A DNA stretch of 64,000 nucleotides from Gammaproteobacteria bacterium (GCA_965222615.1 CBDCUI010000008.1:928001-992000), one strand, 5' to 3'; positions 2,360 through 17,986 are shown, numbered from the stretch's first letter. The notes: generated from the letters alone by a model not told the origin. Numbers and translations are program-made.

Positions 2360-3058
2360 CTAAACTGACAAATGTTGCTTTGCTAGCTCCTCGGAGAGCT
2401 TGTCTATATCACCTTCTTCCACGATTTGACCGTGATCCATAATTGCAAAGTGCTGTGTAACATCGCGTACAAAGTCTAGATTTTGTTCCACTAATAGAAT
2501 CGAGCAATTTCTTTCAGAATGTATGCGTTTAATAATCTCATCAATCTCTTCCACAACAGATGGTTGAAGACCTTCGGTGGGTTCATCTAAAAGCAATAAA
2601 CTAGGTTCTTGAATTAATGCGCGTGCAATAGCCAATTGTTGTTGCTGACCGCCACTGAGAACACCGCCTTTACGTTTTTGTATTGACTCTAATGCTGGGA
2701 AGTATTCGAAAATGAATTTAGGTATTACTTTACTTTTATTATTTTTCCCACGCATAGCAACAAGTAAATTTTCATAAATGGAGATATCAGGAATAATTTC
2801 TCTTCCTTGCGGTACATAGCTTATGCCGGCACGAGCTCGTCGGTGGGTTTGTTGCCGAGTAATATCGTTATTGTTAAAACGGATAGTTCCATTTTGCGGT
2901 GGATTAATACCAGTAATGCTTTTCAGCAAGGTTGATTTACCTACGCCATTTCGACCCAATACGCTTACCATCGCCCCATCTTGTATATCCAACGAAATTC
3001 CATGCAGAATATGGCTGGTACCGTAAAAGGTATTAATATTTTGTACTTCAAGACCCAT
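2360..3058 (-). CDS. urtE: Urea/amide ABC transporter ATP-binding subunit (UrtE/LivF-like)
   Basis: Walker A GRNGVGKS, YVPQGREI, LSGGQQQQ, LLDEPTEG. Confidence 0.9.
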   Translation of the reverse strand: MGLEVQNINTFYGTSHILHGISLDIQDGAMVSVLGRNGVGKSTLLKSITGINPPQNGTIRFNNNDITRQQTHRRARAGISYVPQGREIIPDISIYENLLVAMRGKNNKSKVIPKFIFEYFPALESIQKRKGGVLSGGQQQQLAIARALIQEPSLLLLDEPTEGLQPSVVEEIDEIIKRIHSERNCSILLVEQNLDFVRDVTQHFAIMDHGQIVEEGDIDKLSEELAKQHLSV

Positions 3059-3799
3059 TTAGTGTCCTTTGCCTAAATAGACTGCTTTCACTTCTTCATT
3101 TTCAACTACTTCAGACAAAGGGCCTTCGGCTAATTTTTGTCCTTGAGCCAATACTGTAACTTTGTTGGCAATTTTTCTAACTATGTCCATGTCGTGTTCG
3201 ACTAGCATGACGGTGTGATCTTTAGCAATTTCCTTGATTAATTCTGCAGTTTTGGCTTTTCCATCAGCTGTCATGCCAGTGGTGGGTTCATCTAATAACA
3301 ATAATTTCGGCTCAGACGCAATTAGCATTCCAAGCTCCAGCCATTGTCTTTGCCCATGTCCTAGAGTGTCCACACTGTCCTTAGCCTTATTGGCCAACAT
3401 TGTAAAATCTAAGATTTCCCAGATTCTTTTGTTATCTTGAGTGGTTACCTTACCAAAAAGAGATTTGAATACTTTGCGACGCCCTTTTAAGGACACCATA
3501 ATATTGTCGTAGACAGAAAGTGTTTCGTATAGGTTTGGGACTTGAAATTTTCGACTAATTCCTTTCACAAATATTTTATCAGGTGCATTGTTCGTAATGT
3601 TTTCACCATCAAAAATAATTGTTCCAGATTTAGGTTTATAGCGTCCAGTGATCATATCAATTAATGTTGTTTTACCGGCACCATTTGGTCCAAGTACCAC
3701 ACGCAATTCATTTTCTTCAATACTGAAATCTAAATTATTTAGAATAGTGTAACCACTAACTTCAGTTGTTAACCCTTGTACTTCGAGAATGTTACTCAT
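3059..3799 (-). CDS. urtD: Urea/amide ABC transporter ATP-binding subunit (UrtD/LivG-like)
   Basis: GPNGAGKT, RKFQVP, LGHGQRQWLE, VEHDM, C-terminal VYLG. Confidence 0.9.
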   Translation of the reverse strand: MSNILEVQGLTTEVSGYTILNNLDFSIEENELRVVLGPNGAGKTTLIDMITGRYKPKSGTIIFDGENITNNAPDKIFVKGISRKFQVPNLYETLSVYDNIMVSLKGRRKVFKSLFGKVTTQDNKRIWEILDFTMLANKAKDSVDTLGHGQRQWLELGMLIASEPKLLLLDEPTTGMTADGKAKTAELIKEIAKDHTVMLVEHDMDIVRKIANKVTVLAQGQKLAEGPLSEVVENEEVKAVYLGKGH

Positions 3800-3838
3800 T
3801 ATTGTTTAGTTAAATATTAGTTAAGTGCTAGCATTTCA

Positions 3839-4987
3839 TTAAATCTCACTTGGCCCCTTAGGTTGTCCCGGGCGCCAATCTTTTTGGCGATCTGCGGCCA
3901 GCGCATCAGCTTCTTCAACTACCTCTCCAAGTGGTACATGTTTTTTTCTTGCTGACCACCATTTTCCAACAGTACCTACAATCCCATCACGCATTACCAG
4001 CACCACAAATATGAATAAGCCGCCCATGATCAATTGCCAGGTCCACGCAAGTTTTCCACTTAAGAAAAATTCTGAGCCCTTTACTAAAAATGCGCCGATA
4101 AAGGGACCAATAATCGTTCCTCTACCACCCACTGCCGTCCAAATAACTGCCTCAATTGAAAATACCGGGCCTGCATCTAAAAATGAGATAATACCGTTCC
4201 AAGCTGCATACATCGCACCTGCCGCAGCAGCCATAAAACTGGATACACAGAAGACAAATATTCGATAATTAGCCACGTTATAGCCCATAAATTCTGCGCG
4301 CACATCGTTATCGCGAATCGACTTAAGAACGGTTCCAACACGTGAATGCGTCAAAATTCTTCCCACAACAAAAAATAAAATAGTGACAGCAAGAATGAAC
4401 CAAAGATAATGCATTGTGGCATGAGTGCCGTAATCGGTAATACCGTTAAAGCCTCCCGTATAGGCTTGGTATTCAATTATGGCTTCTTGCAGGATGAGTG
4501 ATTCCGCCAAGGTGATTACTGCACAATAGACGCCGTAAATGTGGCGTTTAAAAGTAATGACACCAAATATAAATGCGATCAATACAGCAAATGCTAACCC
4601 TATAAATATTGCAAAGGGCAAGTTTTGCAAAGGTGCCATAAAGTTTGGTACTTCTGTGAGTCCATTCCATTCCATAAAATCTGGAATAGTTCCACCATAT
4701 CTTGTTGGATGGTCAACTGCGTAATCAATTTTTAAAGAAAGTGCTACCGCATAAGCGCCGATTCCAAAGTAAACCGCTTGTCCTAAACTTAAAATACCCG
4801 CAAATCCCCAAATTAAATCAATGCTCAGAGCAAATATTGCGTAACATAAAAATTTACCCAATAAAGATGTTACATAGGCAGCTCCATAAATAGGGTATGT
4901 TGCAATAGCAAGGACAATTGCAGTTGCAACTACCACAGCTAAAAAAGGAAACATGGGTGCTTTGTATATCTGTCGATCTTGCGCCAT
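3839..4987 (-). CDS. urtC: Urea/amide ABC transporter permease (UrtC-like)
   Basis: DLIWGFAGILSLGQ, PDFMEWNG, TGGFNG, AVGGRGT motifs; polytopic membrane protein. Confidence 0.88.
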   Translation of the reverse strand: MAQDRQIYKAPMFPFLAVVVATAIVLAIATYPIYGAAYVTSLLGKFLCYAIFALSIDLIWGFAGILSLGQAVYFGIGAYAVALSLKIDYAVDHPTRYGGTIPDFMEWNGLTEVPNFMAPLQNLPFAIFIGLAFAVLIAFIFGVITFKRHIYGVYCAVITLAESLILQEAIIEYQAYTGGFNGITDYGTHATMHYLWFILAVTILFFVVGRILTHSRVGTVLKSIRDNDVRAEFMGYNVANYRIFVFCVSSFMAAAAGAMYAAWNGIISFLDAGPVFSIEAVIWTAVGGRGTIIGPFIGAFLVKGSEFFLSGKLAWTWQLIMGGLFIFVVLVMRDGIVGTVGKWWSARKKHVPLGEVVEEADALAADRQKDWRPGQPKGPSEI

Positions 4988-5016
4988 TTGAGTTTATTCC
5001 TTTTTTATTTAGTTCA

Positions 5017-5886
5017 TTACGTTCTCTCGTGGTATCCAAACAATCCTCTAGGGAATACCCGTATAGCAAGCACAATGAAAATGAAAACTAATAGCTTTCC
5101 AATTACATTGTTATAAATGAATGACAAAATTGTCTCGGCTTCACCAATGAGTGCTGAGCCTGCCACAACACCCCAAAGGTTACCTACACCACCCAATACA
5201 AGTACCATGTAGGAATCAACTGCGTAGGGAAATCCCATGGTTGTTGAAACAGATTTAATTGGAGCTAACGCTGCACCTGCAACACCTGCAAGACCAGAAC
5301 CAAATGCAAAGATGAGCATGTCTATTTTTTTAGTATCGATTCCCAGACAGCCAGACATGGTACGATTTCTGCGTACTGATCTTACTTTAAGACCAAGATC
5401 CGTTTTATATAACACTAAATAAGTGATGATCATTAAAATAATTGCAAGAACGATTAGAAACAATCGATACCAAGGGAAAGGTAGTAAACCAATAACTCGA
5501 AAACCACCATCAAGAACTTTTGGTGCACCAACATAATATAATTCAGGCCCGAAAATGAGTTTCATTAAGACCTGAAGAATGATGCCTACACCCCATGTGG
5601 CGAGCAATGTCTCTAAGGGTCGTTCATAGATCCATTGAATAATCGATCGCTCTACAATCAGACCGAGTAATGCAACCACTAGGAATGCAACTGGGATCGC
5701 TAGAAAAGTATTGCCGCCTAGTTGGCCTACTACTGCAGCCGTGTAGGCACCGACCATAATAAATTCCCCATGCGCCATGTTAATTACACCTGCGACTCCA
5801 AAAATTATGGCTAAACCTAACGCGGCAATCATGAGTATTGCTACAACACTAAAGCCATTTAGAAATTGTGTAATGATCGATTCCAT
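5017..5886 (-). CDS. urtB: Urea/amide ABC transporter permease (UrtB-like)
   Basis: GVINMAHGEFIMVGAY and ETLLATWG motifs. Confidence 0.88.
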   Translation of the reverse strand: MESIITQFLNGFSVVAILMIAALGLAIIFGVAGVINMAHGEFIMVGAYTAAVVGQLGGNTFLAIPVAFLVVALLGLIVERSIIQWIYERPLETLLATWGVGIILQVLMKLIFGPELYYVGAPKVLDGGFRVIGLLPFPWYRLFLIVLAIILMIITYLVLYKTDLGLKVRSVRRNRTMSGCLGIDTKKIDMLIFAFGSGLAGVAGAALAPIKSVSTTMGFPYAVDSYMVLVLGGVGNLWGVVAGSALIGEAETILSFIYNNVIGKLLVFIFIVLAIRVFPRGLFGYHERT

Positions 5887-5975
5887 CTATACTTTATGTA
5901 TCTTTGTTACATGTCATGAATGCATACTTATTTACAGTTATTAGGTTGTATAAGCATGTTTGTTTAAGCAATAGC

Positions 5976-6013
5976 ATGTATAGGTGGCTGTTTGAATTCA
6001 GCCGCCTATACAT
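5976..6013 (-). other. Intercistronic stem-loop after urtA (mRNA stabiliser or partial terminator)
   Basis: ATGTATAGGTGGCTG-N8-CAGCCGCCTATACAT, a 15-bp stem with one imperfect pair, just past the binding-protein stop codon. Confidence 0.6.
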
Positions 6014-6025
6014 AAACATTGGTGT

Positions 6026-7330
6026 TTAACTTATATCGAATGTGCCAGATCGGTCTGGATTATTAGACTTTAACCTCTCTAAGACACTTGGATTAGTAAA
6101 ATCACAATCCTTATTCGGATACAGCAAATCAACCCATGGATCTGGACGTACCCAATCGTCGCGTTGCCAAACAATATCAAACTGACCTGCTTCATTTGCA
6201 CGTCCGATTTTTGGCCATAACCAGGTGTGATGATTTAACTCATCAATCTTGACTTTACCGCCTGGCGCATTGAATTCCTGACCTGGTAGACCTTCAAAAA
6301 TCAGAGCATCCGCATCGGTTGATTCTACTTTTTCAAAGGCTTGTGCAAGCATATGAGTTTGAAAATAAGCTGCTTCCATTACAGCATTGGTAACTTCATC
6401 CTTGCCGTATTTAGCTTTGTAAGCTTCAACAAACTTCTTATTTTCTGGTGTGTCAACAGATTGGAAATAATTGAATGAAGTTAAATGACCCAATGCATTT
6501 TCAGGACCCATGGCCGCGGTTTCTTGCTCGGTAGTTATGGGTGTAGCAATTAATATGTCTTCAGCGGTGATACCGAATTGACGGAATTGCTTGTAAAACG
6601 CTACTACTGAATCACCAACAAGATCTGAAAATACAACGTCGGGTTTCTTGGCTGCAATTTTATTGATATTGGTGGAAAACTCTGTATGACCTAAAGGTGC
6701 ATATTCTTCACCAACATCTTCACCACCATGTGCTTTTAACAATGCTTTTACTTCTCGGTTGGTTTCTTTTGGATAAATGTAATTAGATCCGATCATATAA
6801 AATTTGGGGCCAACATTTTTAATCAGCCAAGGCACAAAATCATCTAATTGTTGGTTTGGTACACAGCCGGTATAAAAACAGTTTTTACTGCATTCTTGTG
6901 CTTCATATAATGTTGGATAGAGTAAGACATTGTTATGTTGCTCAAATACAGGCAATACTGATTGACGACTTGCAGAGGTGTAACACCCTAATACCGCAGC
7001 TACTTTATCTTCAAGAATAAGTTTTTTAGCTTTTTCAGCAAATACTTGTACTAAAGATTGAGGATCTTCAATTACTGGCTCAATTTGTTTACCCATTACA
7101 CCGCCGGCAGCATTGATCTCATCAATTGCAAGAAGCTCAGCGTTATGTAGAGAACGTTCAATAATTGCAATGGTGCCACTGAGCGAATGAAGAATACCTA
7201 CTTTAATAGTGTCGCCTGCTGCAGCTTTCGCATATTTTTTCACGAAGAAATATGGAAAGTCTGTAATCGTAGCTGCAGCTGCAGTTCCCGCTACGACAGC
7301 AGAATTTTTTAAAAATTTACGTCGATTCAT
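6026..7330 (-). CDS. urtA: Urea/short-chain amide ABC substrate-binding protein (UrtA/FmdD-like) with Tat signal
   Basis: MNRRKFLK twin-arginine signal, IKVGILHSLSGT, GCYTSASRQSVLP, PNQQ; GGAGG RBS. Confidence 0.88.
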   Translation of the reverse strand: MNRRKFLKNSAVVAGTAAAATITDFPYFFVKKYAKAAAGDTIKVGILHSLSGTIAIIERSLHNAELLAIDEINAAGGVMGKQIEPVIEDPQSLVQVFAEKAKKLILEDKVAAVLGCYTSASRQSVLPVFEQHNNVLLYPTLYEAQECSKNCFYTGCVPNQQLDDFVPWLIKNVGPKFYMIGSNYIYPKETNREVKALLKAHGGEDVGEEYAPLGHTEFSTNINKIAAKKPDVVFSDLVGDSVVAFYKQFRQFGITAEDILIATPITTEQETAAMGPENALGHLTSFNYFQSVDTPENKKFVEAYKAKYGKDEVTNAVMEAAYFQTHMLAQAFEKVESTDADALIFEGLPGQEFNAPGGKVKIDELNHHTWLWPKIGRANEAGQFDIVWQRDDWVRPDPWVDLLYPNKDCDFTNPSVLERLKSNNPDRSGTFDIS

Positions 7331-7740: not shown

Positions 7741-8602
7741 TCAATGGAGGCTAGAGGATTTATCCATTACAAATTTTTCGTAGCACATATGAATGATAGT
7801 GAGCAACCATGAAACGAAGACAAAAGGAGCGGTTAAAGAAGGCCGACCTGAAATAATAAAAATTTGAGTAACAATAACAGCAAATACAATGCCAATAAGA
7901 GGGAATATAACAGGTTTTAAGTTTTGTAAAGCAATTGCAGTTAGCACAGCGCTAAATCCGTAGAGACCTTCTTGAATATTTAAGGCTGGAAAATTGAGGA
8001 TATGAGCAAGTAGCCAGGATAATGATGCGGCAACTACGGCCCATATAAAACTAGATTTTGAGCAAAGTAAAATTGCAACTAGCATGATTACCCTAGTTAT
8101 CCCATTTCCTTGTATATACACTTGCCCGATAGCTTCTCCTAAACCTGAGGTATAGATATTTTCGGTTGTATTGAGGACTTCAGTAGCAGGCTCTAGTTGT
8201 ATTATGTCTGACCCAAGTATTACTAACCATGTGATGAAAACAAAAGGTGCAGTAAATGCAGGAAGTTTGAAATATTGTGGGATCCACTTCGTAACAAATA
8301 CAGATAAAAAAACAACTTAAGACAAAGATACCTATGAATAATGGTGTAACTTGAAAAAAGTAGATATTCGCAATACCTATTAACGTAGCATTATATCCGT
8401 AGATCCCTAAAGCTGTGTCTTTGTTATCTAGCTTGAAAATTTTTGCAGTAGCAGTGCCAATGATTGTTCCAAAAAATGCACCCAGTGCCATTTTCCATGA
8501 ATGAAAAGCAATACTTGCTAATATTATTAAACCAGTTAATGCACAAGGCTGCACAATAACTTGAGCAATCCCTGACATTGAGCTTTTTAAAAAATGGATC
8601 AT
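7741..8602 (-). pseudogene. Urea transporter (UT/Yut family), frameshifted
   Basis: Removing one base from the A7 run (8306-8312) joins both ORFs into a 286-aa protein with two GxxQV/GxYGxx/LPxxTAPFV-type repeats. Confidence 0.8.
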
Positions 8603-8900: not shown

Positions 8901-10058
8901 GTGGTCAAGTCTTCCTGGAAAGTTGGTGTTTTGTTTTCTAAAACAGGTGTGACATCTGTTATAGAGAAAACACAATTAAATGCTACTCTTCTCGCTATTC
9001 GTGAAATTAATGCAAAAGGTGGCGTCAACGGCCGCAGCCTGAAACCCATTGTTTATGATCCGCAATCCAATCCCGAAAATTTTCGGTTGCTTGCCAAGCG
9101 TTTAATTACAAAAGATTCAGCTAATATCATTTTTGGATGTTACATGTCTAGCACACGCAAGGCAGTACTTCCTATCGTTGAAGATTACAATGGTTTATTG
9201 TGGTATCCCACATTGTACGAGGGTTTTGAATACTCAAAAAATGTAATTTATACAGGTTCGGCACCTAATCAAAACAGCATGTTCTTGGCGCGTTATTTGC
9301 TAAATCAATATGGAAATCGTTTTTATTTTGTTGGTTCAAATTATATTTATCCCTATGAATCAAATCGCATCATGAAAGATATTTTGCAATCAACTGGTGG
9401 TAGAGTCGTAGCAGAAAAGTATCTACCTTTAGATGCAAGCAGAAAAGAAATTAATCCGATTTTAGTAGATATTTTAGAGAAACGCCCGAATGTAATTTTT
9501 AGCACTATAGTTGGTTCAGCGACAAGTAAATTTTATAAGAGTTATTGGAATGCAGGCTTGCAACCAAAACAAATGCCAATAGCAAGTCTTACCACAAGTG
9601 AGGCAGAAGTTACGGCAATGGGTCATGAGGTAGCAACAGGGCATGTTACCGCAGCACCATATTTTGAGTCTGTAGACACACCTTTGAATGCAAAATTTGT
9701 AAAAAACTATAAAGCTATGTTTGGAGCATTACAGTGTACAAATGCTTGTGCCGAAGCTGCCTATTTTCAAGTCCACCTTTTTGCTGATGTGTTGCGTCGA
9801 GTCGGTACATTGGATACCGAAATCATACGTACCGCAACACTTGGCACTATATTTGATGCACCTCAAGGAACTATACAAATTGATCCTGATAATAATCATA
9901 CATACTTAAGACCAAAAATAGGGCGTGTTGATCATAAAGGCATGTTTCAGATAGTTGCAGAAACAGATAGACCAGTAAAACCTGATCCATACTTAGTCGA
10001 CCTTGGTTCAGACAAAAGCCTAAATTGCATGAAATACTATGAAAGTGAGATTAACTAG
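8901..10058 (+). CDS. amiC: Amide-sensing negative regulator AmiC
   Basis: VGVLFSKTGVT, FGCYMSSTRKAVLP, YPTLYEGFEYS, YIYPYESNR; no signal peptide; adjacent to an ANTAR regulator. Confidence 0.9.
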   Translation: MVKSSWKVGVLFSKTGVTSVIEKTQLNATLLAIREINAKGGVNGRSLKPIVYDPQSNPENFRLLAKRLITKDSANIIFGCYMSSTRKAVLPIVEDYNGLLWYPTLYEGFEYSKNVIYTGSAPNQNSMFLARYLLNQYGNRFYFVGSNYIYPYESNRIMKDILQSTGGRVVAEKYLPLDASRKEINPILVDILEKRPNVIFSTIVGSATSKFYKSYWNAGLQPKQMPIASLTTSEAEVTAMGHEVATGHVTAAPYFESVDTPLNAKFVKNYKAMFGALQCTNACAEAAYFQVHLFADVLRRVGTLDTEIIRTATLGTIFDAPQGTIQIDPDNNHTYLRPKIGRVDHKGMFQIVAETDRPVKPDPYLVDLGSDKSLNCMKYYESEIN

Positions 10059-10060
10059 CT

Positions 10061-10663
10061 ATGGCACTTGAGATCTTAAAAGATCTACGCAAACTTAATG
10101 TGCTTGTCGTGCATCCGAATGATGAGCAGGGTAATGATATTTGCCAGCATATTGAACGCATCGGATGTAACGTGAGAATGGTTTGGCCTTGTCCTAAACG
10201 TATTAAACCTAATACCGACGTAGTATTTCTGCAAACTCTTCAAGATCAACCATTTACACAAAAGCCCACCTGGCTGAAAGACGATAAAAATAGTCCCACG
10301 ATTATTGCAATTGTAGATTATGAAAATCCAACGGTTTTACAGACTGCCTATGAGGTAGGAGCCCATGCAATTCTAAATACACCTGTTCGACCATTTGGAC
10401 TATTGGCTAATTTGGTAATCGGAAGGACTCACTGGCGTAAAGAATTGGCACTGGTTTCAAGAGTTAAGAAACTCGAAACAAAAATTAGAAAGATTCATGC
10501 AGTTGAGCATGCAATTGCAATACTTGAGCGGGCAAATGATATTAGTCGTGAACAAGCCTATGAATTTATTAGAACCAAAGCAATGGAACGTCGTTTAACT
10601 ACCGAAGACGTTGCCCAAGAAATTGTCGCAGCCGATAAAGCTTTAGAAGTCAATGTTAAATAA
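10061..10663 (+). CDS. amiR: ANTAR antiterminator AmiR
   Basis: LKDLRKLNVLVVHP and VDYENPTVL pseudo-receiver, plus a C-terminal ANTAR helix bundle (EQAYEFIRTKAMERR). Confidence 0.88.
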   Translation: MALEILKDLRKLNVLVVHPNDEQGNDICQHIERIGCNVRMVWPCPKRIKPNTDVVFLQTLQDQPFTQKPTWLKDDKNSPTIIAIVDYENPTVLQTAYEVGAHAILNTPVRPFGLLANLVIGRTHWRKELALVSRVKKLETKIRKIHAVEHAIAILERANDISREQAYEFIRTKAMERRLTTEDVAQEIVAADKALEVNVK

Positions 10664-10748: not shown

Positions 10749-10785
10749 GTAAATAACACATCGCTATAAAATTAATTATTACATA

Positions 10786-10861
10786 GCAGGACCAATAACG
10801 CTCCTGCATGGTAGTTTGGGCAAAAAAGCCCTCAAGGAGAAGTTCCTTGAGGGCTTTTTTT
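10786..10861 (+). promoter_or_regulatory. ANTAR-type attenuator in the amiE leader
   Basis: P1 GCAGGA-CCAATAACGC-TCCTGC; P2 GGGC-AAAAAA-GCCC overlapping the terminator GCCCTCAAGGA-N5-TCCTTGAGGGC-T7. Confidence 0.82.
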
Positions 10862-11005
10862 ATGCGTGTGGAAAAAAAATTAGTTATGGAATGTTGGTTA
10901 AGGCCAAACAGGTTTGAAATAAAAATTTTATTCGTAATAAAACTGTCAATTTATTACCAATCTGTTCAGCGACATATGGTTATAAATAGACTAGGAGGAT
11001 AGATT

Positions 11006-12040
11006 ATGTATCACGGTGATATATCAAGTAGTAAAGATGCTGTAGGTGTTGCAGTAGTAAATTATAAAATGCCACGTCTACATACTAAAGCGGATGTTCT
11101 CGAGAATGCTCGCAACATTGCAAACATGATTGAGGGCATGAAAGTAGGCTTACCTGGAATGGACCTGGTCATTTTTCCTGAATATAGCACGCATGGAATT
11201 ATGTATGATGAAAAAGAGATGTATGAAACTGCATCAACTTGTCCAGGTGAAGAGACTGAAATTTTTGGTGAGGCATGTCGGAATGCAAAAGTTTGGGGAG
11301 TGTTTTCACTAACCGGTGAACGTCATGAAGACCACCCTAACAAAGCGCCGTATAACACACTGATTTTGATGAATGATAAAGGTGAGGTTGTACAAAAGTA
11401 CCGTAAAATAATGCCTTGGGTTCCGATAGAGGGCTGGTATCCGGGTAACTGCACCTATGTTTCAGAAGGTCCAAAAGGATTAAAAATTAGTTTAATCATT
11501 TGTGATGATGGCAACTATCCTGAAATTTGGCGTGATTGTGCAATGAAAGGTGCAGAATTAATTGTCCGTTGTCAGGGTTATATGTATCCGTCAAAAGACC
11601 AACAGATAATGGTGGCTAAGGCGATGGCATGGATGAATAACTGCTATGTTGCGGTGGCCAATGCTACTGGATTTGATGGCGTATATTCTTACTTTGGCTA
11701 TTCATCCATTATTGGATTCGATGGACGCACGCTTGGGGCGTGTGCTGAAGAGGATATGGGAGTTCAATATGCGAACTTATCTACTTCGCTCATCCGCGAC
11801 GCACGTAAAAATCAGCAATCTCAAAATCATCTGTTCAAACTTCTACATCGTGGTTACACAGGTAAAATCAATTCTGGTGAAGGTGATCAAGGTGTTGCAG
11901 AATGTCCCTATGATTTTTACAAGAAGTGGATTACTGATCCTGATGCAACCCGTGAAATGGTGGAATCCATTACTAGAACCACGGTTGGTACAGAAGAGTG
12001 TGAAATTGAGGGTATTCCAAACCCAAAAACACATCGTTAA
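11006..12040 (+). CDS. amiE: Aliphatic amidase AmiE
   Basis: [22 protein letters not shown], catalytic [31 protein letters not shown]; GGAGG RBS. Confidence 0.96.
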
Positions 12041-12050
12041 TTTTGTAACT

Positions 12051-12093
12051 GAAGTGAAGGCGAAGGCATCATGTGTGTCTTCGCCTTACTTTC
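12051..12093 (+). other. Stem-loop between amiE and the cbbQ-like gene
   Basis: AAGGCGAAGGCA...TGTCTTCGCCTT stem with only a short T tract after it; likely a stabiliser or leaky terminator. Confidence 0.55.
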
Positions 12094-12142
12094 CTGCGGG
12101 TTGGTGTAATATTCAATCCTATGAGTTTCTTGAGTATTTAGA

Positions 12143-12940
12143 ATGAATCTTGATAGCTACTTAATCACGGATGAGCCTTATTACTCGCCTACGCATAACG
12201 AGATTCAATTGTTTGAAGCGGCCTACGCAAGTCGTATGCCAATGATGCTGAAAGGTCCGACAGGATGTGGCAAAACTCGTTTTGTAGAATATATGGCATG
12301 GAAACTTAAAAAACCTCTTATTACGGTTTCTTGTCATGAAGATATGACAGCATCGGACTTGGTCGGCCGCTATTTGCTCGATGCGGATGGCACAGTTTGG
12401 CACGATGGGCCATTAACCTTAGCAGTGCGATATGGAGCAATTTGCTACTTAGATGAAATCGTAGAAGCCAGGCAAGATACAAGCGTTGTAATTCATTCGC
12501 TAACGGACGATCGTCGAATGCTGTCGCTGGAAAAGAAAAATGAGGTGGTAAAAGCAGATAAAGATTTTCAAATCGTTATATCGTATAACCCAGGTTACCA
12601 AAGTGTTTTAAAAGACCTAAAAGAGTCAACCAAACAGAGATTTGGCGCAATCGATTTTGATTATCCAAAACCCGAAGACGAGGCAAATATCATTGCACAT
12701 GAGTCTGGTGTCGATAAAAAGATTGCTATGAAACTTGTGCAAATCTCAGAACGATCAAGAAATTTAAAAGGACATGGTTTAGACGAAGGAGCATCTACAC
12801 GCATGTTAATTTATGCTGCCCAGCTTATCGCTCAAGGCGTTTCATTAGAGGAGGCTTGCGAAGTGGCTTTGGTTTTGCCAATTACTGATGATCACGACAT
12901 CCGAAATGCATTAACTTCAGCAATCGCTGCTACAGCGTGA
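12143..12940 (+). CDS. cbbQ: CbbQ/NirQ/NorQ family MoxR AAA+ ATPase
   Basis: [68 protein letters not shown]. Confidence 0.88.
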
Positions 12941-12950
12941 GGAAATAGTT

Positions 12951-15251
12951 TTGGTTGCGTCCACGACGCGAGGCAAATATGCGGTTTTCCCACGAAGTAA
13001 AGAATCGGATAGTTTTGATGCTGAATTAGCAGAACTGATTCAAGAAGGAAAATCTCATTTCTCTAAGCAATACTTCCCGCATTGGGAACGCGCTTGCCAC
13101 AAACTAGCCCATGCAGGTTATGGTAACTTAATTACTCTATCTTTTGTTCGTCACTCGCCTAAGTTAGTTAACTATATAAATCCTGAAGCAGCAATCAATT
13201 TAGCATCTACTGTTTCTCTTGCAGCAATTAAAGTTAACCGAGCGGCTCCAGAATTATTGCCTAAAGCTGCGGTAATAGCCGCACATGAATTACGATCAAC
13301 ATTAGCCTTCAACTCTTGGTTAGAAACAATAGAAGAGTTAATACGTGCTGCACCTGAATCAGTACTTGCTGTCTTAGAACGGACTCAAAAAATTCTTACT
13401 GCGTTAACACCACAGCAATTTAGATCGTGGGTGCTTGCCGGTTTGCGTTCGACTGGTGATGATACATTACGACAGATTCAATACTTTTCATTTATTGATC
13501 CTGAATCGGAAAAGTGGTTTCGCCATGAAGCTGGCGATCTGGTTTTTACAGATCTTGATAGGCGGTTAAAACTTTATCTAATTTCCCTATGGAACCTCAA
13601 TCCACCTATACGCGATCTTCCTCCTTCATCGTTACCACTATCGCTGAGGCGAATTTCAATTAGTAATGGGGTTGTGCAAATGCCGGAAGTGTTTCCGGGG
13701 TTTCATGGAGAACAAGCGGAAAATATCTTTAGAGCAGGCCTGGCACATGTGGGTGCGCATTTAATGCATTCAACTAAAAAATTTCCTTTAGGTGAGTTAA
13801 AACCTATCCAAGTCGCATTGGTATCGCTGCTAGAGGATGCGCGTGTAGAACATCTGGCGATGCAAACTTTTCCAGGTTTGCGTAAGCTTTGGTTACCATT
13901 TCATGTTGCAAAAGCAAGTGGACCGCTACTGGTGCCACATCTCTTTGCGCGACTATCGCGAGCACTGATCGATAACAATTATCAAGACCGCAATGCTTGG
14001 ATACAAAAAGCCAAGGATATGTTTTTTGATCCTGCCAATGATATGACTAATCCAGCAATGTGCAGAAAAATAGGCGTACTTTTAGGTAATGATTTAGGGC
14101 AGTTACGTGCACAATTTAATGTTAAAACTTATGTTATAGAACCACCATATCGAGATGACAATATGGGGCTATGGGAGTTTGGAGATTATCAAGGCGAAGA
14201 ACAAGATAATGATGGAATTTTTATCGAAGCCATGCGTATGGAGCAGGCAGAAGAAGATAGTTCATCACCAGATCAAGATCGAAAAGAAAGTGATGAGCAA
14301 AGTGAGCAACAATATCATGCGCGAGAGAGCTCTGACCAAGAAAGCCGTGAATCAGATGTAGCAGCTCGTTACCCAGAATTTGATTATCTCACTGGCTCTG
14401 AACGTCCAAACTGGACATGTGTCGTGGAATATTTTCCCGATTTTGGTGACGCCACTAAAATCGATAGAATTTTAGAGACACATTATGATTTAGTGACTCG
14501 TATCACGCGTCTCATTCAAGCCGCAAAAGTAAGTTTACCAGAACGTTTGCATCACCAAAGTGTTGGAGAATCATTGGATTTAGATGCATGCATCAGTGCA
14601 GTTGTCAGTCGAAGAATGGGTGAGATACCTGACCCAAGAATATATAGCACTACTGAACGTAAGCATCGTGACCTTTCTGTTTTGGTATTATTAGATATTT
14701 CTAATTCAACGAATGATCGTGTTGAAAAAGCAGGCGCCACTGTTCTTGAGCTTGAAATTCAAGCTACCAGTCTATTAACTTATGCGATGTCTGAGTTAAA
14801 TGACCCTTTTGCTATCTCCGCATTTTGCTCAGATGGAAAAGAAGATGTTCATTACTATCGTATTAAAAACTTTAACTCACCATACGATTCGACAGCACGT
14901 GCTTATTTAGCTGGATTACGTGGTAAATTATCTACGCGTATTGGTGCTGCGATGCGGCATGCAACGAATGATTTAATTACACAACGAACTCATAGAAGAC
15001 TTTTATTAGTGATATCCGATGGAGAGCCCTCGGATATTGATGTTAAAGATAAAAAATATTTGGTTGAAGATGCCCGTAAAGTAGTTCGATCGATATCACA
15101 CTTAGGAATCGATACTTTTTGTGTTGGTTTAGATTCAGGTGGCGATAATTATCTAAATAAAATTTTTGGAAGAAAAAATGTAGCGGTAATAGATAATATA
15201 GATCGCTTGCCAGAGCGATTGCCTATGCTTTATCTTCGTTTAACAGCGTAA
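12951..15251 (+). CDS. cbbO: CbbO/NorD family vWA-domain adaptor
   Basis: 766 aa; EDARVE, FPGLRKLW, YRDDN, YPEFDY; C-terminal vWA with MIDAS DISNS...STRIG...SDGEP; follows cbbQ. Confidence 0.85.
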   Translation: MVASTTRGKYAVFPRSKESDSFDAELAELIQEGKSHFSKQYFPHWERACHKLAHAGYGNLITLSFVRHSPKLVNYINPEAAINLASTVSLAAIKVNRAAPELLPKAAVIAAHELRSTLAFNSWLETIEELIRAAPESVLAVLERTQKILTALTPQQFRSWVLAGLRSTGDDTLRQIQYFSFIDPESEKWFRHEAGDLVFTDLDRRLKLYLISLWNLNPPIRDLPPSSLPLSLRRISISNGVVQMPEVFPGFHGEQAENIFRAGLAHVGAHLMHSTKKFPLGELKPIQVALVSLLEDARVEHLAMQTFPGLRKLWLPFHVAKASGPLLVPHLFARLSRALIDNNYQDRNAWIQKAKDMFFDPANDMTNPAMCRKIGVLLGNDLGQLRAQFNVKTYVIEPPYRDDNMGLWEFGDYQGEEQDNDGIFIEAMRMEQAEEDSSSPDQDRKESDEQSEQQYHARESSDQESRESDVAARYPEFDYLTGSERPNWTCVVEYFPDFGDATKIDRILETHYDLVTRITRLIQAAKVSLPERLHHQSVGESLDLDACISAVVSRRMGEIPDPRIYSTTERKHRDLSVLVLLDISNSTNDRVEKAGATVLELEIQATSLLTYAMSELNDPFAISAFCSDGKEDVHYYRIKNFNSPYDSTARAYLAGLRGKLSTRIGAAMRHATNDLITQRTHRRLLLVISDGEPSDIDVKDKKYLVEDARKVVRSISHLGIDTFCVGLDSGGDNYLNKIFGRKNVAVIDNIDRLPERLPMLYLRLTA

Positions 15252-15292: not shown

Positions 15293-17230
15293 ATGACTTC
15301 AGATAAAACCTACCCTGTCCCGCAAGCATGCGCCTCGAAGGCTCATATCGATGCGGCGCGCTACGAAACAATGTATCGTCAATCGATCGAAAACCCGAGT
15401 GAGTTTTGGGCCGCACAGGCCGAGAAGTTTGTCAGTTGGTATAGAAAGTGGGATCAAGTCTTAGATTGGGACTATCATACTGGTCGCATTCGTTGGTTTG
15501 ACGGTGCGAGTCTGAATGTTTCCTACAATTGCATCGATCGTCACCTTGAGACTCGCGGAGAACAAACCGCTATCATCTGGGAAGGCGATGATCCCAGTAA
15601 AGACCAGCACATTACCTATCGAGAACTACATCAAGAAGTAAGTAAATTCGCGAATGTATTAAAGTCTCGTGGTGTACAAAAAGGCGATCGTGTATGCATC
15701 TATATGCCGATGATTCCCGAAGCGGCGTATGCGATGTTGGCGTGTACACGCATTGGAGCAGTACATTCCGTAGTGTTTGGTGGGTTTTCTCCGGATTCCT
15801 TACGTGATCGTATTTTAGATTCCGACTGTCGCACTGTGATCACAGCGGATGAAGGCGTGCGTGGGGGCAAGAAAGTCCCGCTAAAAGCCAATACCGATAT
15901 CGCTTTGCAAGAATGTCCCAATGTCAGCACGGTGGTTGTTGTGCAGCGTACTGGTGGTGAGATTAATTGGGATGTAGATCGTGACGTTTGGTATCACGAA
16001 GCTATGCAAGGAGTGAGTGCAGAATGTGCGCCCGAACCCATGGATGCCGAGGATCCGCTATTTATTCTCTATACCTCCGGTTCTACTGGCAAACCTAAAG
16101 GCGTGCTGCATACTACTGCAGGTTATCTTTTATATGCGGCCATCACACATAAATACGTATTTGATTATCATGAAGGTGAAGTCTATTGGTGTACCGCCGA
16201 CGTGGGTTGGGTCACAGGTCATACCTATATCGTATATGGCCCCTTATGCAATGGCGCTATCACCATGATGTTTGAAGGTGTGCCCAACTACCCGGATGGT
16301 AGTCGTTTTTGGCAAGTCTGTGATAAACACAATGTTGCAAGTTTCTATACCGCGCCAACCGCGATCCGTGCCTTAATGAGTTTGGGTGATGATGTGGTTA
16401 AAAAAACCAGTCGCAACAGTTTGCGCATTCTTGGTACGGTAGGTGAACCGATTAATCCTGAGGCATGGGAGTGGTACTATCACGTGGTTGGAGATGGGCG
16501 CTGCCCGATTGTCGATACCTGGTGGCAGACCGAGACCGGTGGACATCTGATTACTCCATTACCGGGCGCCACTGATCTTAAACCGGGCTCAGCGAGCAAA
16601 CCGTTCTTTGGGATCCAACCGGCGATTGTCGATGAGCAAGGCCAGGAATTGGAAGGCGAATGTCAGGGCAACCTAGTCATGAAACACCCTTGGCCAGGAC
16701 AGATGCGTAGCGTGTATGGGGATCATCAGCGCTTTATTGATACCTACTTTTCACAATACCCGGGGCTGTACTTTAGTGGTGACGGCTGTCGACGTGATGC
16801 CGATGGCTATTATTGGATTACCGGACGCGTAGATGACGTACTCAATATCTCGGGACATCGTTTGGGTACCGCGGAAGTGGAGAGTGCCTTAGTGTTGCAT
16901 GAAAAAGTGGCGGAAGCGGCCGTCGTCGGGTATCCGCATGAGATCAAAGGTCAAGGCATTTATGCCTATGTCACGCCGATGGCCGGCATTGAAACCAGTG
17001 AGGCACTCAAAGACGAATTGATCCAATTGGTGCGCAAAGAAATTGGACCTTTTGCCAAACCGGATGTGATTCAGTGGGCGCCAGGTTTGCCAAAGACACG
17101 TTCGGGTAAAATTATGCGACGTATTCTACGCAAAGTGGCCGAGAACGATATGGATAATTTAGGCGATACCACTACCCTTGCGGATCCTTCGGTAGTTCAA
17201 GAGATTGTTGCCAATCGAGTTAATGTATAA
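15293..17230 (+). CDS. acs: Acetyl-CoA synthetase
   Basis: [37 protein letters not shown]. Confidence 0.97.
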
Positions 17231-17392
17231 AGGTGTATTCAATATCTAAGTCTTTATAATTTATAGGGATTTTCATGAAAGGCAGTATTACCATTCATCG
17301 CTGTTTTTATACCGTATAGCCCCAAACGTGTAATTTAGCTGCAGTAGTTTGTTATTTCTATAGTATTGGTAGGGAGTTGGAGTTACCGAGTC

Positions 17393-17986
17393 ATGGAAGT
17401 TATTGACTCTATCTTATCTGTTTCGTATTTAAAGCTTGGGGTGATATTAATTGCCTTCTTATTATTTGTTTTGTGGGCATATCGAGTCAGTCAAAGAATT
17501 CGGCATAATTATAAGCTTGTTCAGCAGCGCAAAGCCGAGCAAAAAAGAATTCAAGAACTACGTAATCATTTCCAACATGACATTTCTACCTTCGTCAAAT
17601 CATATAGAAGTGACATCTCTACCAAACTGGAAAAAGGCAAAGTAGAAAATGGTTTATTTGTATTTTGGAGTGGTGCGGATAATATTCTTAAAGAATTTAT
17701 AAGTGATACATCAAATATAAATAGGTTGCCTAATAGAGAAGAAAGAGTTGCGATACGAAGTTTTTATACTGAAGCAAAATCATTAGTTGATGGGATACTA
17801 TATAACAACTATTTGTTAAAAAAATATCAATACTTGCGTTGCAAGATCAAGACAACAACAGCCACATCGGCAGAAATTGATGAAGTGGGTACCATAACGG
17901 AACAAATGTCATTACTAGGCACACAGTTACAACAACAACATCATGAATTGTTATCTAGTCTTCGAGCAGCAAAATCATATTTTTAG
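17393..17986 (+). CDS. Hypothetical membrane-anchored coiled-coil protein
   Basis: One TM segment followed by a helical region; start uncertain (17366 or 17393). Confidence 0.55.
   Translation: MEVIDSILSVSYLKLGVILIAFLLFVLWAYRVSQRIRHNYKLVQQRKAEQKRIQELRNHFQHDISTFVKSYRSDISTKLEKGKVENGLFVFWSGADNILKEFISDTSNINRLPNREERVAIRSFYTEAKSLVDGILYNNYLLKKYQYLRCKIKTTTATSAEIDEVGTITEQMSLLGTQLQQQHHELLSSLRAAKSYF

Follow-up and report, generated by a model that had tools for sequence, protein, structure and literature searches.

A CbbQO-type ATPase and adaptor pair encoded behind amiE probably serves the aliphatic amidase AmiE rather than Rubisco or nitric oxide reductase

CbbQO machines, which join the AAA+ ATPase CbbQ to the von Willebrand factor A (vWA) adaptor CbbO, have so far been known only as Rubisco activases. 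Their nearest relatives have been thought to be split between Rubisco and nitric oxide (NO) reductase, and NirQ/NorD are the sole non-Rubisco homologs mentioned in a 2017 review of Rubisco activases. Here, we describe a CbbQ-like and a CbbO-like gene that follow amiE, the gene for an aliphatic amidase, in a 64,000-nucleotide stretch of DNA from Gammaproteobacteria bacterium (GCA_965222615.1, CBDCUI010000008.1:928001-992000; hereafter the window). A first-pass annotation had proposed that this pair is an “amidase activase” with AmiE as its client. We find that this proposal is supported by the clade to which the pair belongs, by conserved gene order, by the exclusion of the ATPase AmiB, and by a C-terminal tag on AmiE, and that AmiE is very probably the client.

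The CbbQO Rubisco activases (Q1O1 and Q2O2 of A. ferrooxidans, and CsoCbbQ of Halothiobacillus) are encoded beside the form IA or form II Rubisco that they activate; they are Q6O1 complexes whose ATPase responds to the inhibited client. The sections of Tsai 2015 that deal with the C terminus of Rubisco report that large subunits associated with cbbQ and cbbO carry an HK/R motif. Both activation and the stimulation of the ATPase are lost when one or two residues are removed or a single alanine is added. Substitutions are tolerated at the last position but hardly at the penultimate His, and an 11-residue C-terminal peptide stimulates the ATPase by itself. NorQ/NorD, the chaperone that inserts FeB into cytochrome c-dependent NO reductase (cNOR), likewise combines a MoxR AAA+ ATPase that has a CbbQ_C domain with a vWA partner bearing a MIDAS (metal ion-dependent adhesion site); it is encoded with norCB, and the partner has ~610 to 650 amino acids and an N-terminal region that bears no relation to CbbO. 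AmiB, encoded in the amiEBCRS operon of P. aeruginosa, is also an AAA+ ATPase and occupies the slot directly after amiE. It is poorly described in the literature and, in the wording of one passage of a 2025 review, “hypothesised to function as a chaperone”.

The arrangement has been touched on once before. The relevant passage of Microorganisms 2026;14:1048 describes an ami operon on plasmid pYu-LOS15-16 of Pseudomonas veronii Yu15, with amiE, amiC, amiR, an ATPase with PF07728 and PF08406, and a “NorD-like” gene, and guesses in a few sentences at an assembly or activation role for the pair. It treats a single plasmid and, in that passage, offers no phylogeny, census, comparison with AmiB, or mention of a C-terminal tag. 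Our literature search found PMC13209695 as the sole paper joining an aliphatic amidase with NorQ/NorD and no other joining one with CbbQ or CbbO; papers that bring MoxR and amidases together dealt, among those listed, with peptidoglycan amidases and the like, and the main text of Sutter 2015 does not mention “amidase”. Thus, the claim of an undescribed client class holds in part: the gene pair had already been noted in passing. As far as we found, what is new is how widespread it is, that it forms a clade apart, that it excludes AmiB, and most of all that its client tag is shared with Rubisco.

The window carries the gene order amiC-amiR-amiE-cbbQ-cbbO-acs, all on its plus strand (Table 1). 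From the open reading frame (ORF) coordinates, the intergenic gaps are 102 nt (amiE-cbbQ), 10 nt (cbbQ-cbbO), and 41 nt (cbbO-acs), and ORFs and profile matches bear out the row of four genes from amiE to acs, with the first two gaps, that had been described earlier. The amidase scores 271 bits against the formamidase model NF009803, under its cut-off of 406, and is thus an aliphatic amidase and not AmiF; among solved aliphatic amidases it matches 2PLQ (E = 1.9e-193) and 2UXY (E = 1e-185). The ATPase shares the AAA_5 and CbbQ_C domains of CbbQ and has, besides its Walker A motif, a Walker B-like YLDE read from the translation. It is 65 to 72% identical to Rubisco-linked CbbQ, versus 52 to 59% to NorQ-like proteins, and its best solved relatives are CsoCbbQ (5C3C, 417 bits) and AfCbbQ2 (6L1Q, 387 bits), with NorQ (9QH4) at 312 bits.

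The claim that the adaptor is a full-length CbbO-like vWA protein with an intact MIDAS also stands, with 766 amino acids and all five residues present. This places it in the length class of CbbO (~750 to 780 amino acids), and at least 94% of its length aligns with Rubisco-linked CbbO (743 to 797 amino acids) at 28 to 36% identity. The five MIDAS residues are kept in 128 of 128 aligned CbbO/NorD-like proteins, and their spacing agrees with that of D573, S575, S577, T656, and D684 in AfCbbO2, as cited in the 2017 review. The vWA domain also aligns with solved NorD (9QHD, over residues 470-764), but NorQ-like partners, at 604 to 709 amino acids, align with the protein only in its C-terminal, vWA-bearing third. 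NCBIfam holds no specific model for either protein. The locus thus resembles the CbbQO Rubisco activases in domains, adaptor length, MIDAS, the order client-cbbQ-cbbO, and a client that ends in His-Lys/Arg. It differs in that the client here is a nitrilase-superfamily amidase, with a fold unrelated to Rubisco.

We surveyed this arrangement in three samples. AmiE relatives were scanned in one genome per species, and the best 80 of 579 confirmed stretches (83 to 94% identity) were kept with 8-kb flanks. An even, phylum-wide sample of 401 genomes (176 of which have a CbbQ_C match) yielded 23 besides the window's with a true AmiE at ≥73% identity, and a class-wide sample added 10 AmiE loci. A locus was scored as partnerless in its flank only if at least 6 kb lay on each side. 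A CbbQ-like gene, a CbbO-like gene, or both lie in the fetched flank at 87 of the 116 AmiE loci. The pair or its vWA half is present at 73 of the 80 most similar loci, 6 of 23 phylum-wide, 5 of 10 class-wide, and both plasmid loci. Among the top 80, cbbQ is directly downstream of amiE at 40 loci, on the same strand 0.6 to 8 kb off at 15, and convergent at 18. The synteny is therefore not unique to this genome: the loci come from Gamma-, Alpha-, and Betaproteobacteria records, one Verrucomicrobia metagenome-assembled genome (MAG), and one Polyangiaceae MAG. The full order amiE-cbbQ-vWA-acs recurs in L007 to L015, in L175, and on two annotated plasmids, pRsp8C3a of Rhizobium etli and p3 of Brucella anthropi, where RefSeq names the products “CbbQ/NirQ/NorQ/GpvN family protein” and “VWA domain-containing protein”; elsewhere, RefSeq sometimes calls such vWA genes NorD.

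The module is also seen outside Proteobacteria (L033, the Verrucomicrobia MAG; L069, the Polyangiaceae MAG) and on plasmids (L169 and L170), and in L033 CbbQ groups with its Pelagibius counterpart (L017). Together, these observations indicate that the module moves as a unit.

The C terminus of AmiE links the pair to its putative client. The window AmiE ends in His-Arg, and all 30 aligned CbbQO-linked AmiE keep both H343 and R344. When all loci are aligned, the penultimate residue (343) is the sole column that separates pair-linked AmiE from the rest. Among the 116 loci, 95 AmiE have a penultimate His (HR 85, HK 9, HA 1) and 21 have another residue. Wherever the pair or its vWA half lies in the flank, the penultimate residue is His (87/87; HR or HK in 86, HA in 1). 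Conversely, none of the 21 AmiE without this His is accompanied by an amidase-type pair; 10 are followed by AmiB and 11 by neither. In the phylum sample, 13 of 17 untagged AmiE belong to genomes without any CbbQ homolog. Eight tagged AmiE have no pair in the flank, six of which have an amidase-clade CbbO or a CbbO-like fragment nearby or in the genome: an amidase-clade CbbO lies 8.7 kb from amiE in L079, 11 kb away in L037, and elsewhere in the genome for L024, L025, and L083, while L040 has a CbbO-like fragment, without tree placement, on amiE's own 1.8-kb contig. Across the AmiE tree, the His trait changes at least seven times, in step with the partner wherever this can be judged.

This kind of ending is rare in the genome at large, where 6 of 1824 ORFs of ≥200 amino acids end in H[KR]. 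It is found on Rubisco as well: all 21 RbcL encoded within 3.5 kb of cbbQ in our own loci are tagged (HK 18, HR 1, HA 2), and they include form I and form II enzymes that are only ~30% identical to each other. The AmiE pattern, an invariant His mostly followed by Arg or Lys at the very end, matches in sequence the rule of Tsai 2015. As the tag that CbbQO needs on Rubisco sits on pair-linked AmiE, AmiE is very probably the client. An AlphaFold2 model of the AmiE monomer (mean predicted local distance difference test score, pLDDT, 71) renders residues 326-344 as coil with pLDDT <50, which is weakly compatible with an accessible tail.

Protein trees separate the pair from both described families. 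The 176 phylum-sample genomes with a CbbQ_C match contain 210 such matches, of which 150 were listed. The context set comprised 60 regions with 63 CbbQ genes: the places outside family f41 among the matches listed, three further places, and 19 regions in family f41. CbbQ rows required coverage >0.85 and >150 bits, CbbO rows >500 amino acids and coverage >0.25, and genes cut by contig ends were excluded. In FastTree analyses of 137 CbbQ and 128 CbbO-like proteins, NorQ/NorD-like rows split off with support of 99 to 100, leaving a Rubisco-linked clade and amiE-linked clades. The window CbbQ lies on the CbbQ side of a split with support of 99, in a clade that holds amiE-linked rows only. For IQ-TREE (LG+G4, short search), 60 CbbO-like rows were hand-picked from 118 pairs after the FastTree result had been seen. 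Rubisco-linked rows form one clade (Shimodaira-Hasegawa-like approximate likelihood ratio test, SH-aLRT, 100), and the window protein falls in a clade of 27 rows, all amiE-linked (SH-aLRT 97), with nine further amiE-linked rows unresolved at the base. When 12 sequences were added, all 36 amiE-linked rows and 8 new ones formed one clade (SH-aLRT 96). The approximately unbiased (AU) test rejects (P = 0.0001) a tree in which the window subclade, a group chosen once the tree was known, is joined to the Rubisco clade; this constraint costs 125 log-likelihood units. None of the 63 CbbQ_C-anchored pairs from other contexts falls among the amiE-linked clades. Thus, the amiE-linked CbbO clade stands beside the Rubisco-linked clade, not nested inside it.

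Two pairs within the Rubisco clade, in L116 and L118, lack an RbcL within 6 kb. In front of each stands an ORF of 176 amino acids (L116:8945-9475, minus strand; L118:6861-7391, plus strand) with a penultimate His (LHP and LHS), for which no Pfam family was found in L118, the one checked.

The rest of the genome (3.1 Mb, 39% G+C, 9 contigs) bears on whether the pair could serve Rubisco or NO reductase. Genome-wide searches place no Rubisco, nor, or nir gene in the window, where not every ORF is annotated, in line with the first-pass annotation. The sole RuBisCO_large gene lies ~100 kb from amiE at C8:834671-836134 (C8 being the contig on which the window spans 928001-992000), in an operon rbcL-rbcS-cbbX-rpe-tkt-fba-prk behind a LysR gene. 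The gene 3' of rbcS encodes 325 amino acids with AAA and AAA_lid_6 domains, as in CbbX-type activases, and the Rubisco is red-type. CbbX resembles CbbQO in being an AAA+ ATPase that works through the client C terminus, but it belongs to a different AAA+ family, works without a vWA adaptor, and passes the tail through its pore. The RbcL that it serves ends in TTAAA. Since the Rubisco of this genome is served by CbbX, the CbbQO-like pair is free for another client. RuBisCO_large is, moreover, unmatched in three of five other genomes that have amiE-cbbQ-cbbO. The absence of Rubisco from the window, a CbbX-served red-type Rubisco, and a position outside the Rubisco clade together argue against classing the pair as a Rubisco activase. 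Rubisco was rejected as the client on its own CbbX, its TTAAA end, the Rubisco-less module genomes, and the AU test.

NO reductase fares no better as the client. A query search of the genome found no cNorB-like match; its four COX1-family genes are all on another contig (C7), and Cytochrom_D1 matches are weak ones only (C8:625-642 kb). No norCB adjoins the amidase pair, the partner aligns along its full 766 amino acids with CbbO, and NorD-like proteins form a separate clade (SH-aLRT 99 to 100). One NorQ-type locus, by comparison, reads norC-norB-norQ-x-norD. Assignment to NorQ/NorD thus fails, and cNOR was rejected as the client. Taken together, the CbbQ-like and CbbO-like proteins are probably, on sequence grounds, a CbbQO-type remodeling machine for AmiE and for neither Rubisco nor NO reductase.

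A second CbbQ gene, in another clade, lies at C8:50147-50959 (minus strand; L005:10147-10959). It adjoins aprBA and has no neighboring vWA gene. A vWA gene of ~700 amino acids lies ~1 Mb away (C8:1061287-1063323, minus strand) and is 45% identical to the partner in L134, which is the second CbbQ's nearest relative; these two genes form a split pair of a third clade. Partners in this clade have 687 to 706 amino acids, and L134 has a CxxCxxCC protein upstream. The Rubisco operon has, a few kb upstream of it, a gene resembling N,N-dimethylformamidase (DMFA2_C; L004:3265-5586 = C8:829264-831585) that is accompanied by an ABC permease and points to more amide metabolism in this autotroph.

The pair could also serve some other client (Acs, the Urt-like transporter, a urease-like enzyme, or a Rubisco encoded elsewhere) and merely travel with amiE. 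The gene acs is directly 3' of cbbO in the window and on the two plasmids, urease-like genes stand beside cbbQ in Burkholderiales loci, the genome does encode a Rubisco, and three loci have a vWA gene after amiE with no cbbQ nearby. However, of the 40 top-80 loci where cbbQ is directly downstream of amiE, just 8 also have an acs at >50% identity, and none of the window's Acs, AmiC, AmiR, CbbQ, and CbbO ends in H[KR]; Acs was rejected as the client on these two grounds. In L039, where the urease-like genes intervene, AmiE is the only checked product to end in HR; the five other ORFs checked in this interval have no H[KR] end. Untagged AmiE loci with a Urt-like gene lack the pair, and Rubisco is countered by the evidence given above. 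We therefore regard another client as very unlikely.

The three loci with an adaptor alone (L177:10260-12110, L179:10315-12102, and L180:10278-12158) encode CbbO-like proteins of 595 to 626 amino acids directly after an AmiE that ends in HR or HK. These align to approximately residues 200-765 of the window CbbO. The 616-amino-acid protein of L177 has no Pfam family and aligns by BLAST to residues 204-765. No cbbQ lies within 9 kb of these genes, and each genome has three cbbQ genes elsewhere, so that an adaptor-only CbbO may borrow its CbbQ ring from another locus.

In other bacteria, the slot after amiE is taken by a Clp-type AAA+ ATPase. This AmiB type follows amiE in 10 of the 116 loci, and AmiB and an amidase-type pair never share a locus (0/116), so that the two exclude each other in these samples. 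In the phylum sample, 6 of the 23 loci have the pair directly 3' of amiE, 7 have a Clp-type ATPase, and 10 have neither; most of the last place amiE beside fmdA and urt genes. The 10 class-sample loci divide into two with the pair, three with a vWA gene alone after amiE, three with AmiB, and two with neither. Genes with AAA_2 and ClpB_D2-small domains (319 to 356 amino acids) follow amiE in L102 to L105, L107, and L108, which agrees with the Clp-like AmiB that the first-pass annotation had named for Pseudomonas; the seventh AmiB of the phylum sample, in L106, was identified by tblastn. L106 was considered as a locus with both AmiB and an amidase pair and rejected, as its cbbQ-cbbO follows LysR and rbcL-rbcS genes and falls in the Rubisco clade. 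AmiB differs from the ATPase of the window in its domains (the latter having AAA_5 and CbbQ_C), in lacking a vWA partner, and in the tail of the AmiE that it accompanies. All 10 AmiB-linked AmiE (L102 to L108 and L182 to L184) lack the His tag and end in a Lys/Glu-rich tail, often with G-K-E-K, and small residues at the end. This tail may be AmiB's own recognition signal. As AmiB-linked AmiE keep their own tail without exception, two unrelated motors might read the same AmiE end, with AmiB a nonhomologous ATPase that would be doing the same job.

The comparison with AmiB also raises the reading that the pair acts negatively: it would switch AmiE off, dismantle its hexamer, or pass it to a protease once the amide is gone. 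C-terminal tails are typical signals for Clp-type unfoldases, AmiB is Clp-like, and sequence gives no direction of effect. Nevertheless, the pair is apparently cotranscribed with amiE and acs behind an amide-controlled leader, and would thus be made when AmiE is wanted. Known CbbQO and NorQD machines both activate their clients, and no protease gene lies beside the module in the loci inspected. A negative role is thus highly improbable.

We propose the following working model for the pair as a machine that serves AmiE. Amide-bound AmiC would free AmiR, which would read through the leader terminator, and amiE-cbbQ-cbbO-acs would be transcribed together, as gene order and the hairpin suggest. 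A CbbQ hexamer with one CbbO would then dock on the AmiE hexamer, making two contacts that mirror those in the Rubisco system. In one, the His-Arg end of AmiE would fit a pocket of the complex; in the other, an acidic residue on the AmiE surface would bind the MIDAS metal of the CbbO vWA domain. This docking is modeled on the Rubisco system of Tsai 2015, while the tag and the MIDAS residues are seen in the sequence. Binding would stimulate the ATPase, and ATP hydrolysis would alter AmiE conformation in such a way that activity is gained or kept. The dimer interface in the nitrilase superfamily is formed, according to a figure legend, by the C-terminal ends; a machine that tugs at the tail or holds it fixed could thus loosen this interface and open a blocked site.

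If AmiE is the client, we somewhat favor, by analogy, the view that the pair rescues enzyme blocked in the course of catalysis. Such blocks would be ligands that are bound tightly or leave slowly, or acyl or carbamoyl intermediates that have stalled and are made accessible to water. Older literature records time-dependent inhibition of Pseudomonas amidase by urea. AmiE catalysis runs through a thioester on the active-site Cys, and crystals of a trapped acyl-transfer intermediate have been obtained (2UXY, as cited in the literature).

Help for new hexamers in reaching the active state is a more tentative task for a pair that has AmiE as its client. A stricter version of this idea, in which the pair acts in biogenesis only, supporting AmiE folding, hexamer assembly, or the active conformation once per molecule and without repair, seems rather unlikely to us. 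It fits the tag and the synteny as well as repair does. Related MoxR/vWA pairs mature their clients, as in the insertion of FeB into cNOR by NorQD, and a machine that binds a tail at the dimer interface could act in assembly. Against this, AmiE is not known to have a metal cofactor that would need insertion. AmiE without the pair assembles in other bacteria, as PDB entries attest. The nearest characterized relatives, the CbbQO machines, work on enzyme that is mature and inhibited, and it is this inhibition that their ATPase senses. For this last reason, we place repair ahead of one-time assembly.

Several points count against AmiE as a dedicated client or against its repair. To our knowledge, AmiE is not established to suffer from tight-binding inhibitors as Rubisco does, and an AAA+ motor cannot by itself cleave a covalent adduct. 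The 21 AmiE of 116 that have neither tag nor pair, and the AmiE-family amidases that have been solved as recombinant proteins (2PLQ and 2UXY), indicate that AmiE as such manages without the machine, so that any benefit must be conditional. The top-80 set is biased toward AmiE resembling that of the window. In Burkholderiales loci such as L039 (9111-14540; also L041, L047, L050, and others), genes for UreE_N, a 596-amino-acid urease-alpha-like protein, and a UreG-like GTPase separate amiE from cbbQ. Two tagged AmiE stand without a fitting partner: for L073, a 186-amino-acid fragment at a contig edge, without placement, is all that was found, and the L181 genome yielded nothing but a Rubisco-type pair and NorD-like genes. 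The AmiE tree offers only four independent contrasts on well-supported branches, about two of which go the same way and none the opposite way (P of at least 0.25 among related sequences), so that the test is underpowered. Finally, position 343 alone discriminates tagged AmiE, which show no acidic residue specific to them.

The surroundings of the module suggest how it might be controlled and supplied. AmiC copies that are 86 to 88% identical precede amiR-amiE in L006, L011, and L175. The leader region between amiR and amiE (10775-10875) folds at -41.3 kcal/mol (z = -5.7), with none of 200 shuffles equally stable. Its terminator was absent from the list of a consensus terminator scan and was found by reading and folding the sequence. 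AmiR antitermination probably acts on it, as judged by analogy with the ami leader of P. aeruginosa described in a review. The spacer between amiE and cbbQ (12041-12142) folds at -32 kcal/mol (z = -3.9), and its hairpin may act as an mRNA stabilizer or as a partial stop that keeps amiE expression above that of cbbQO. Acs would take up the acetate freed from acetamide. The Urt-like ABC transporter probably imports amides; context suggests that it belongs to the same unit, and most related loci have a UrtA-like gene in the neighborhood of amiE.

Two further features flank these genes. Between the Urt-like transporter and amiC, a urea transporter gene (Pfam UT; 7741-8602, minus strand) is split into two ORFs that match profile positions 3-100 and 172-290 and is probably a pseudogene. 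On the other side, 3' of acs, an ORF of 206 amino acids (17366-17986, plus strand) matches no Pfam or NCBIfam family and has a 59% identical copy in the same place in L011.

Table 1. Features of the amidase locus and its surroundings, in window coordinates
Feature	Position	Strand	Evidence
Urt-like ABC transporter	2360-7330	-	Pfam Peripla_BP_5, BPD_transp_2, ABC_tran
Urt-like transporter, binding protein	6026-7330	-	
Urt-like transporter, permeases	5017-5886, 3839-4987	-	
Urt-like transporter, ATPases	3059-3799, 2360-3058	-	
amiC-like amide sensor and negative regulator	8901-10058	+	Pfam Peripla_BP_5, 482 bits
amiR, ANTAR antiterminator	10061-10663	+	Pfam AmiR_N, 128 bits; ANTAR, 39 bits
Leader terminator, amiR/amiE interval	10828-10861	+	11-bp G+C-rich stem, 5-nt loop, 7-T run
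amiE, aliphatic amidase, 344 aa	11006-12040	+	NCBIfam NF009802, 710 bits (cut-off 427)
AmiE His-Arg end, proposed activase tag	12032-12037 (last two codons)	+	Translation
Hairpin without T-run, amiE-cbbQ spacer	12051-12092	+	RNA fold
CbbQ-like MoxR-class AAA+ ATPase, 265 aa	12143-12940	+	Pfam AAA_5, 116 bits; CbbQ_C, 113 bits
CbbQ Walker A, GPTGCGKT, residues 38-45	12254-12277	+	Motif
CbbO-like adaptor, 766 aa, TTG start	12951-15251	+	Pfam VWA
CbbO-like VWA domain, residues 577-743	14679-15179	+	Pfam VWA
CbbO-like MIDAS D582, S584, S586	14694-14708	+	Alignment
CbbO-like MIDAS T662	14934-14936	+	Alignment
CbbO-like MIDAS D690	15018-15020	+	Alignment
acs, acetate-CoA ligase	15293-17230	+	NF001208, 1095 bits

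We also put forward, tentatively, a broader view in which the C-terminal His-Lys/Arg is a portable “service tag” that defines CbbQO-type clients and has arisen on a non-Rubisco enzyme. AmiE would then, like Rubisco, run into dead ends while it catalyzes and need ATP-driven repair, which two nonhomologous motors would provide, CbbQO-like machines and Clp-like AmiB each reading their own version of the AmiE tail. If this broader view is true, the tag could predict the clients of orphan MoxR/vWA pairs.

A pair beside amiE should not be named a Rubisco or NO-reductase activation protein in annotation. If AmiE is indeed the client, the recognition rule of CbbQO would be general and transferable, and studies of MoxR/vWA motors would gain a second, simpler client, as AmiE is a soluble homohexamer with a color assay. 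It would also suggest that the amidases used in biocatalysis can be inactivated in ways that cells can repair, and it would give the role of AmiB a testable hypothesis.

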